NCBI RefSeq assembly: GCF_024223415.1
Contig: NZ_CP100500.1
DNA: 64,000 nt
Strand: one strand, 5' to 3'
Source of the DNA: Escherichia coli
GTDB taxonomy: Bacteria; Pseudomonadota; Gammaproteobacteria; Enterobacterales; Enterobacteriaceae
A model generated the notes under the pieces. It did no database searches. It was not told the DNA's origin and saw nothing but the letters and a program-made list of their open reading frames with translations. The translations under genes were made by a program, and so were the position numbers. Within the stretch, counting starts at the first letter, position 1. Each line of letters begins with the position of its first letter. Below, piece after piece: positions 63,626 through 64,000 of this stretch.

Positions 63626-63647
63626 TGGTGCCGGACTCGGAATCGAA
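63626..63647 (-). repeat. Integrase-proximal att repeat: 22 nt matching the tRNA-Phe 3' end with one missing C; not a complete tRNA
   Basis: tggtgccggactcggaatcgaa versus recalled tRNA-Phe 3' end; downstream sequence is unrelated to the tRNA body. Confidence 0.7.
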
Positions 63648-64000
63648 TATTTCATTTATCATATTGATATTTGTGTGATTTATTTGGTTTGATTAAAAAT
63701 GTACCCTCATTTGTACCCGTAGTCCCTTTTGATATTGAAAGGGAATCACACTCGGGATCAGGCTGAGAGCACAGAAAGAAAGTGCTTGGCTATTATATCG
63801 TTAATTCTGTCAATCAGTTCCAGCCTTTTGAAAGTGATGTGTGCAGATCCCTTCTTAAAATATTTAATGATGAACATCTCGTCTTCATAGCGCTCTTTAC
63901 CCTGAACGGACTGGATGTGACCATCCAGACGAATAGTGATGTTTTCCCGGTTGTCGGGGATGGGGGTGCCGCTGAACAGATGTAGCATTCTTTCCAGGTC

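Follow-up and report, generated by a model that had tools for sequence, protein, structure and literature searches.

Why does the integrase end of a genomic island at the tRNA-Phe gene pheV abut a fragment of that gene and not the gene itself? The question arises near the end of the window, by which is meant the whole 64,000-nt stretch of Escherichia coli DNA analysed here; it covers the pheV region and is read from the type II secretion genes toward pheV. The chromosomal side is well conserved, with 97% identity to K-12 over 40401-41139. The type II secretion operon flanks the pheV locus, and the last of its core genes, yghD (gspM), lies in this segment (40435-40971, plus strand; a listed open reading frame whose homologue is named yghD in SCU-316 and K-12). 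A terminator-like hairpin at 41084-41107 (minus strand), native to the region downstream of pheV, marks the chromosomal flank of the entire island array. Because the hairpin is followed by a T run, it is presumably the terminator of pheV. The 52 nt to the left of position 41120, hairpin included, are identical to the yghD-side flank of the intact pheV at the empty site of K-12. The distal att repeat of the first island (island A) comes next, at 41120-41139 (minus strand), and is an exact copy of tRNA-Phe nt 57-76 (20/20). The same junction is found in SCU-316. The distal end of island A is thus of the kind that Islander recognizes, a displaced 3' tDNA fragment, here beside the native flank.

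Island A (41140-63625; 22,486 bp) is a defence-gene island with an inactivated integrase, bounded by two tRNA-Phe fragments and present in 19 complete E. coli genomes, where it is 99.7-100% identical over its length. An IS3-family transposase occupies its distal end (41327-42426, minus strand; mapped onto the window from the RefSeq annotation of SCU-316), and the open reading frame list contains 41327-41803 within this region. Defence cargo with strong PADLOC matches (Shango-like SngA/B/C, AbiEi/AbiEii and PDC-S06) spans 49510-59614. The Shango-like genes sngA (53025-55352; PADLOC SngA, 5e-97), sngB (51705-53021; SngB, 4e-187) and sngC (49510-51708; SngC, 1e-273), all on the minus strand, are predicted to encode a TerB-domain protein, an ATPase and a helicase, and their contiguity on one strand over 49510-55352 is the arrangement expected of a Shango locus. 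They are followed by an AbiEii toxin and AbiEi (DUF6088) antitoxin pair (55536-57220, minus strand; PADLOC AbiEii 3e-193 and AbiEi 7e-46, with RefSeq names) and by an AAA ATPase of the candidate defence family PDC-S06 (57419-59614, plus strand; PADLOC 3e-242). Directly downstream of sngABC and on the same strand lie island A open reading frames of 743 and 1583 aa (42555-49534, minus strand); they match no PADLOC model and are labelled 'hypothetical' in RefSeq, and may belong to the defence locus as additional components. A 305-aa open reading frame annotated as an 'integrase domain-containing protein' (61097-62014, plus strand), likewise without a PADLOC match, lies in island A beside the frameshifted integrase.

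The P4-type tyrosine integrase of island A (62196-63463, minus strand) is a pseudogene. The gene measures 1268 nt (3n+2) and carries a -1 frameshift near 63056-63067; the frame switches at GKF/PVSDLK, in the central domain. Accordingly divided are its Pfam domains, with Arm-DNA-bind_3 and half of Phage_int_M in one frame and the remaining Phage_int_M and Phage_integrase in the other. RefSeq tags the gene 'frameshifted' in all five genomes inspected. Island A has a tyrosine integrase at its tDNA-proximal end, as Islander demands of an island, though the gene is a pseudogene. The frameshift is the same in genomes that contain island A alone and in those that contain a second island (island B) as well. 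Island A was probably immobilised by this frameshift and later buried behind the second island.

The second tRNA-Phe fragment, at 63626-63647 (minus strand), lies upstream of the integrase gene, which starts 162 nt away. It copies the final 23 nt of tRNA-Phe in 22 nt, with one C missing, and reads TGGTGCCGGACTCGGAATCGAA, the reverse complement of tRNA-Phe nt 54-76 with CCGG replacing CCCGG; on the window strand the alignment to these nucleotides is TGGTGCC-GGACTCGGAATCGAA. In the tRNA sense the repeat lacks one G (TTCGATTCCGAGTCCGG-CACCA), and it is assigned here as the attR of island B. Both fragments, at 41120-41139 and 63626-63647, have one orientation, the minus strand carrying the tRNA sense. 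In the catalogue of pheV islands (GI-pheV) of E. coli, attR is given as TTCGATTCCGAGTCCGG-CACCA, a '23-bp imperfect' direct repeat present in 16 of 41 reference strains (Nhu et al., 2024, PLoS Genet; PMC11537424, Table 1). The reverse complement of 63626-63647 is identical to this attR, which marks the distal boundary of GI-pheV (PMC11537424). To judge from these comparisons, a chance match is excluded, because an intact pheV has its 3' end at this very place in SCU-316 and because the repeat equals the published attR.

No tRNA body follows either fragment. From an earlier inspection of the letters alone (the sequence-only reading) it had been claimed that neither att repeat runs into a tRNA body, and in particular that the sequence past the repeat at 63626 departs from that of tRNA-Phe. 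Both statements hold: direct comparison with the tRNA body gives 7 matches in 53 nt past 63647 and 15 in 56 nt past 41139. ARAGORN finds no tRNA gene in the whole 64-kb window and, as a positive control, detects tRNA-Phe at the homologous place in SCU-316. An Rfam search of 63300-64000 returns no match even at E<=10. The folding energy of the 76 nt at 63626-63701 is -4.1 kcal/mol, compared with -34.1 kcal/mol for real tRNA-Phe. An intact tRNA-Phe overlapping 63626-63700, which the same reading had named as a possible counter-finding, was sought in three ways (ARAGORN, Rfam and folding) and is absent. A degenerate tRNA hidden in 63626-63701 is ruled out by the same three analyses together with the direct comparison. 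In place of an intact pheV, with its 76-nt cloverleaf and GAA anticodon, the window holds just nt 54-76.

What replaces the tRNA body becomes clear from the junctions of related genomes. At the empty site of K-12, the repeat (TGGTGCCCGG...CGAA) has the native terminator on its left and the tRNA body on its right. SCU-316, which carries island A only, keeps the repeat TGGTGCCCGG...CGAA and the tRNA body on the right, with the integrase arm of island A on the left. In O104:H4 strain 2011C-3493, which carries island B only, the native terminator on the left is followed by the repeat TGGTGCC-GG...CGAA and, on the right, by an AT-rich arm and a DUF4942 gene. The window has the island A integrase arm on the left, the repeat TGGTGCC-GG...CGAA, and on the right the AT-rich arm and DUF4942 gene as in O104:H4. 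It follows from this series that the seam in the window combines two half-sites, the left one of A's attL and the right one of B's attR. All four configurations (empty, A only, B only, and A with B) exist in complete genomes. In 12 genomes the island A match extends to 63647 and no further, and in SCU-316, which was checked, an intact tRNA stands there; in this strain island A (22.5 kb) is alone and its integrase directly adjoins intact pheV.

The seam of the window, including the 1-nt-short repeat, is found in seven complete E. coli genomes, three of which (EC1515, DSM 103246 and 4FM) were followed to pheV. In EC1515, island B measures 37 kb and contains a yee module, Ag43 and BREX-1, and is followed by an intact integrase, tRNA-Phe, yqgA and speC. 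Island B is 46 kb long in DSM 103246 and 85 kb long in 4FM, in both cases followed by an intact integrase, an intact tRNA-Phe and yqgA-speC. O78 strain 3 has a related tandem in which pheV is still unreached after 89 kb. The content of island B varies greatly among the tandem genomes, so its size in the present strain is unpredictable. The island B integrase of the relatives is intact and 67% identical to that of island A. Among 5426 complete E. coli genomes the closest seam has 97% identity. The exact 54-nt seam has no match in species-representative genomes, and in metagenomes it occurs on one contig with the same island B arm and repeat. The left flank of that contig is of the pheU type (a yjdQ integrase remnant and a hairpin) and not island A, which rules it out as an extension of the window.

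These genomes support the proposal, made in the sequence-only reading, that a second element lies between island A and the real pheV: SCU-316 shows island A by itself, seven genomes share the seam, and the three that were followed reach pheV. That reading had also set about 50 kb as the distance beyond which the absence of a tRNA or integrase would count against the proposal, a limit that proves too tight, as pheV is 85 kb away in 4FM and more than 89 kb away in O78 strain 3.

The sequence to the right of the repeat (63648-64000) has a G+C content of 41%. It starts with the non-coding distal arm of island B (63648-63757), which begins right after the repeat in the genomes inspected; places matching the island B arm were found in 359 E. 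coli genomes. The arm is followed by the 3' end of island B's last gene, a DUF4942 gene (63758-64000, minus strand; the last 80 codons and the stop, with the start beyond the window). A small open reading frame at 63758-63988 had been taken to begin just inside the next element. Its placement in that element is right, but it is the window edge that makes it look small: open through base 64000, the frame is the 3' end of a longer DUF4942 gene. Strain Ch1 has a 280-aa DUF4942 protein whose residues 201-280 agree with the 80 codons at 79 of 80 positions (99%), and Pfam PF13708 matches the frame of 63758-64000 at 5e-22 over profile positions 113-188 of 190. An independent small gene at 63758-63988 is ruled out, since these codons encode the C-terminal end of DUF4942. 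The CP4-44-like yee module usually closes with this gene, in the order antirestriction, radC, DUF987, cbeA, cbtA, DUF5983, DUF957, DUF4942. By the features visible in the window, island B would be a canonical GI-pheV whose end module is of the yee/DUF4942 type.

The island B arm contains an inverted repeat, TCCCTTTTGATATTGAAAGGGA (63713-63743), immediately past the stop codon of DUF4942; it may act as a terminator or, within the att arm, as a site for protein binding. The arm of the window most resembles that of Ch1 (99.2%), a strain without island A. In this strain, yghD is separated from the native pheV terminator by a group 2 capsule (kps) cluster (4870-19805 of its locus). Since its island B attR still abuts the native terminator, kps lies outside the att-bounded island.

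The window end is thus, with high probability, a tandem array of two pheV islands, in which island A came first and island B later entered the regenerated pheV. The array runs from the type II secretion genes through the pheV terminator, the fragment at 41120-41139, island A and the repeat at 63626-63647 to the distal arm of island B. The intact pheV, the rest of island B and its integrase would lie past base 64000, as they do in the relatives. Membership of an array calls for an integrase and a tDNA fragment of the element's own. Island A has both; island B contributes to the window just the fragment at 63626-63647 and the distal arm, and its integrase is seen in EC1515, DSM 103246 and 4FM. 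In the proposed history, island A would have entered pheV and displaced the 20-nt fragment now at 41120, after which the frameshift would have inactivated its integrase. Island B would then have entered the regenerated pheV by site-specific recombination, pushing island A away and leaving its own attR as the seam at 63626. The order, A before B, is probable because the integrase frameshift is the same in single and tandem genomes.

The opposite order would have island B at pheV first and island A entering later, not into an intact tRNA gene but into the distal attR remnant of B. Genomes with B only do carry the 1-nt-short attR adjoining the native terminator, and either regenerated core of a resident island can take a second element (TIGER; PMC7192596). 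Such an attR remnant, lacking the tRNA body, is only half a target site, and the genomes with A only show island A using intact pheV. Moreover, with the -1 frameshift shared by single and tandem genomes, island A would have needed either a helper integrase or two identical frameshifts. The opposite order is improbable on these grounds.

Still less probable is a reading without any array, in which a deletion or rearrangement truncated pheV, a DUF4942 fragment was joined by non-site-specific recombination, and no pheV follows. The window does stop 353 nt past the repeat, and pheU could supply tRNA-Phe if pheV were lost. Yet the break falls exactly at the published attR boundary and at the boundary of the island B arm known from 359 genomes, neither an IS element nor a scar is present at the junction at 63626-63647, and the seam recurs in seven complete genomes, those followed having an intact pheV. 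An assembly chimera, with two pheV or pheU islands mis-joined through their common repeat, has almost no credibility. The repeat and the yee modules recur within genomes (in up to five places per genome in a first search), and such repeats can mis-join short-read assemblies; at 22 nt, however, the repeat is too short to mislead an assembler, and identical seams exist in seven complete genomes that are independent of one another and come from various hosts and countries.

The feature is of an ordinary and already documented kind, as both tandem tDNA islands and the exact imperfect attR have been published. Islander lists 125 arrays of at least two islands among 3919 islands, an array being defined by an integrase and a tDNA fragment for each of its members (PMC4383910). 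As integration regenerates the core at both ends, elements can stack (TIGER; PMC7192596). The present array shares with such tandem tDNA arrays the placement of the fragments in the orientation of the tRNA gene; those arrays end at a regenerated tRNA gene (PMC4383910; PMC7192596), which here would lie past base 64000, as in the relatives. It also differs from the standard case in that the integrase of island A is dead and the proximal member is represented by just its last 353 nt. With GI-pheV as catalogued, the window shares the attR, a flu/yee (CP4-44-like) last module and the target, pheV beside yqgA (PMC11537424). GI-pheV also has an intP4 integrase gene immediately downstream of pheV, beside yqgA, a placement seen here in the three relatives that were followed. 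In the catalogue, however, attR bounds the island against core or kps DNA (PMC11537424), and in the window its neighbour is the integrase end of a different island. In strain 12009 (E. coli O103:H2) the LEE is located downstream of this attR, a position described as 'suggesting its independent acquisition' (PMC11537424). As in the window, a separately acquired element lies beyond the 23-bp attR on the side away from pheV (PMC11537424). The outer element of 12009 is the LEE pathogenicity island, while here it is a 22.5-kb Shango/AbiE/PDC-S06 defence island. A literature search for 'tandem' together with pheV found nothing specific. The CP4-44/CP4-57-type cryptic P4-like prophages and the Shigella she island have the same end module followed by an att repeat; they are single islands or occupy other tRNA genes, and in the window the DUF4942 end alone is visible. 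In practice, a tRNA fragment beside an integrase without a tRNA is a reason to seek a tandem array and not a broken island. The boundaries of the 22.5-kb defence island (Shango, AbiE, PDC-S06) are now fixed.

The missing base of the repeat at 63626-63647 is puzzling. The att repeat beside a DUF4942-type arm is without the same single base in all of the 13 junctions examined. The left neighbours at these junctions are the native pheV flank, the island A integrase or a pheU flank (beside cadC and yjdQ), and the right arms diverge down to 83% identity. CCCGG is kept in every intact tRNA-Phe seen (pheV, and K-12 pheU) and in island A's own repeat. A separate 1-nt deletion after each integration is an unlikely source, given 13 of 13 junctions at three different targets. 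Rather than arising by identical deletions at each target, the short repeat may have been carried by the island B family in its attP and may not reflect random decay of the tRNA fragment, a proposal on which our confidence is evenly divided. If it is right, strand exchange by intP4 would take place in the final 7 nt of the tRNA gene (GGCACCA) or immediately beside them and not in the T-loop, and the other 15 nt of the 'repeat' would be element-borne, perhaps as a core-binding site of the integrase. The published attR table shows the same imperfect attR without discussing an attP origin or the crossover point (PMC11537424).

The 'native' downstream flank of K-12 pheU (NC_000913.3, 4362191-4362626) consists of a yjdQ integrase remnant together with the hairpin GGACCTCCGTGGAGGTCC, and this sequence differs little from the integrase-proximal arm of EC1515's pheV island (18000-18072 of the extracted locus). 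For this reason the K-12 pheU flank appears to be what is left of an old island belonging to the same family.
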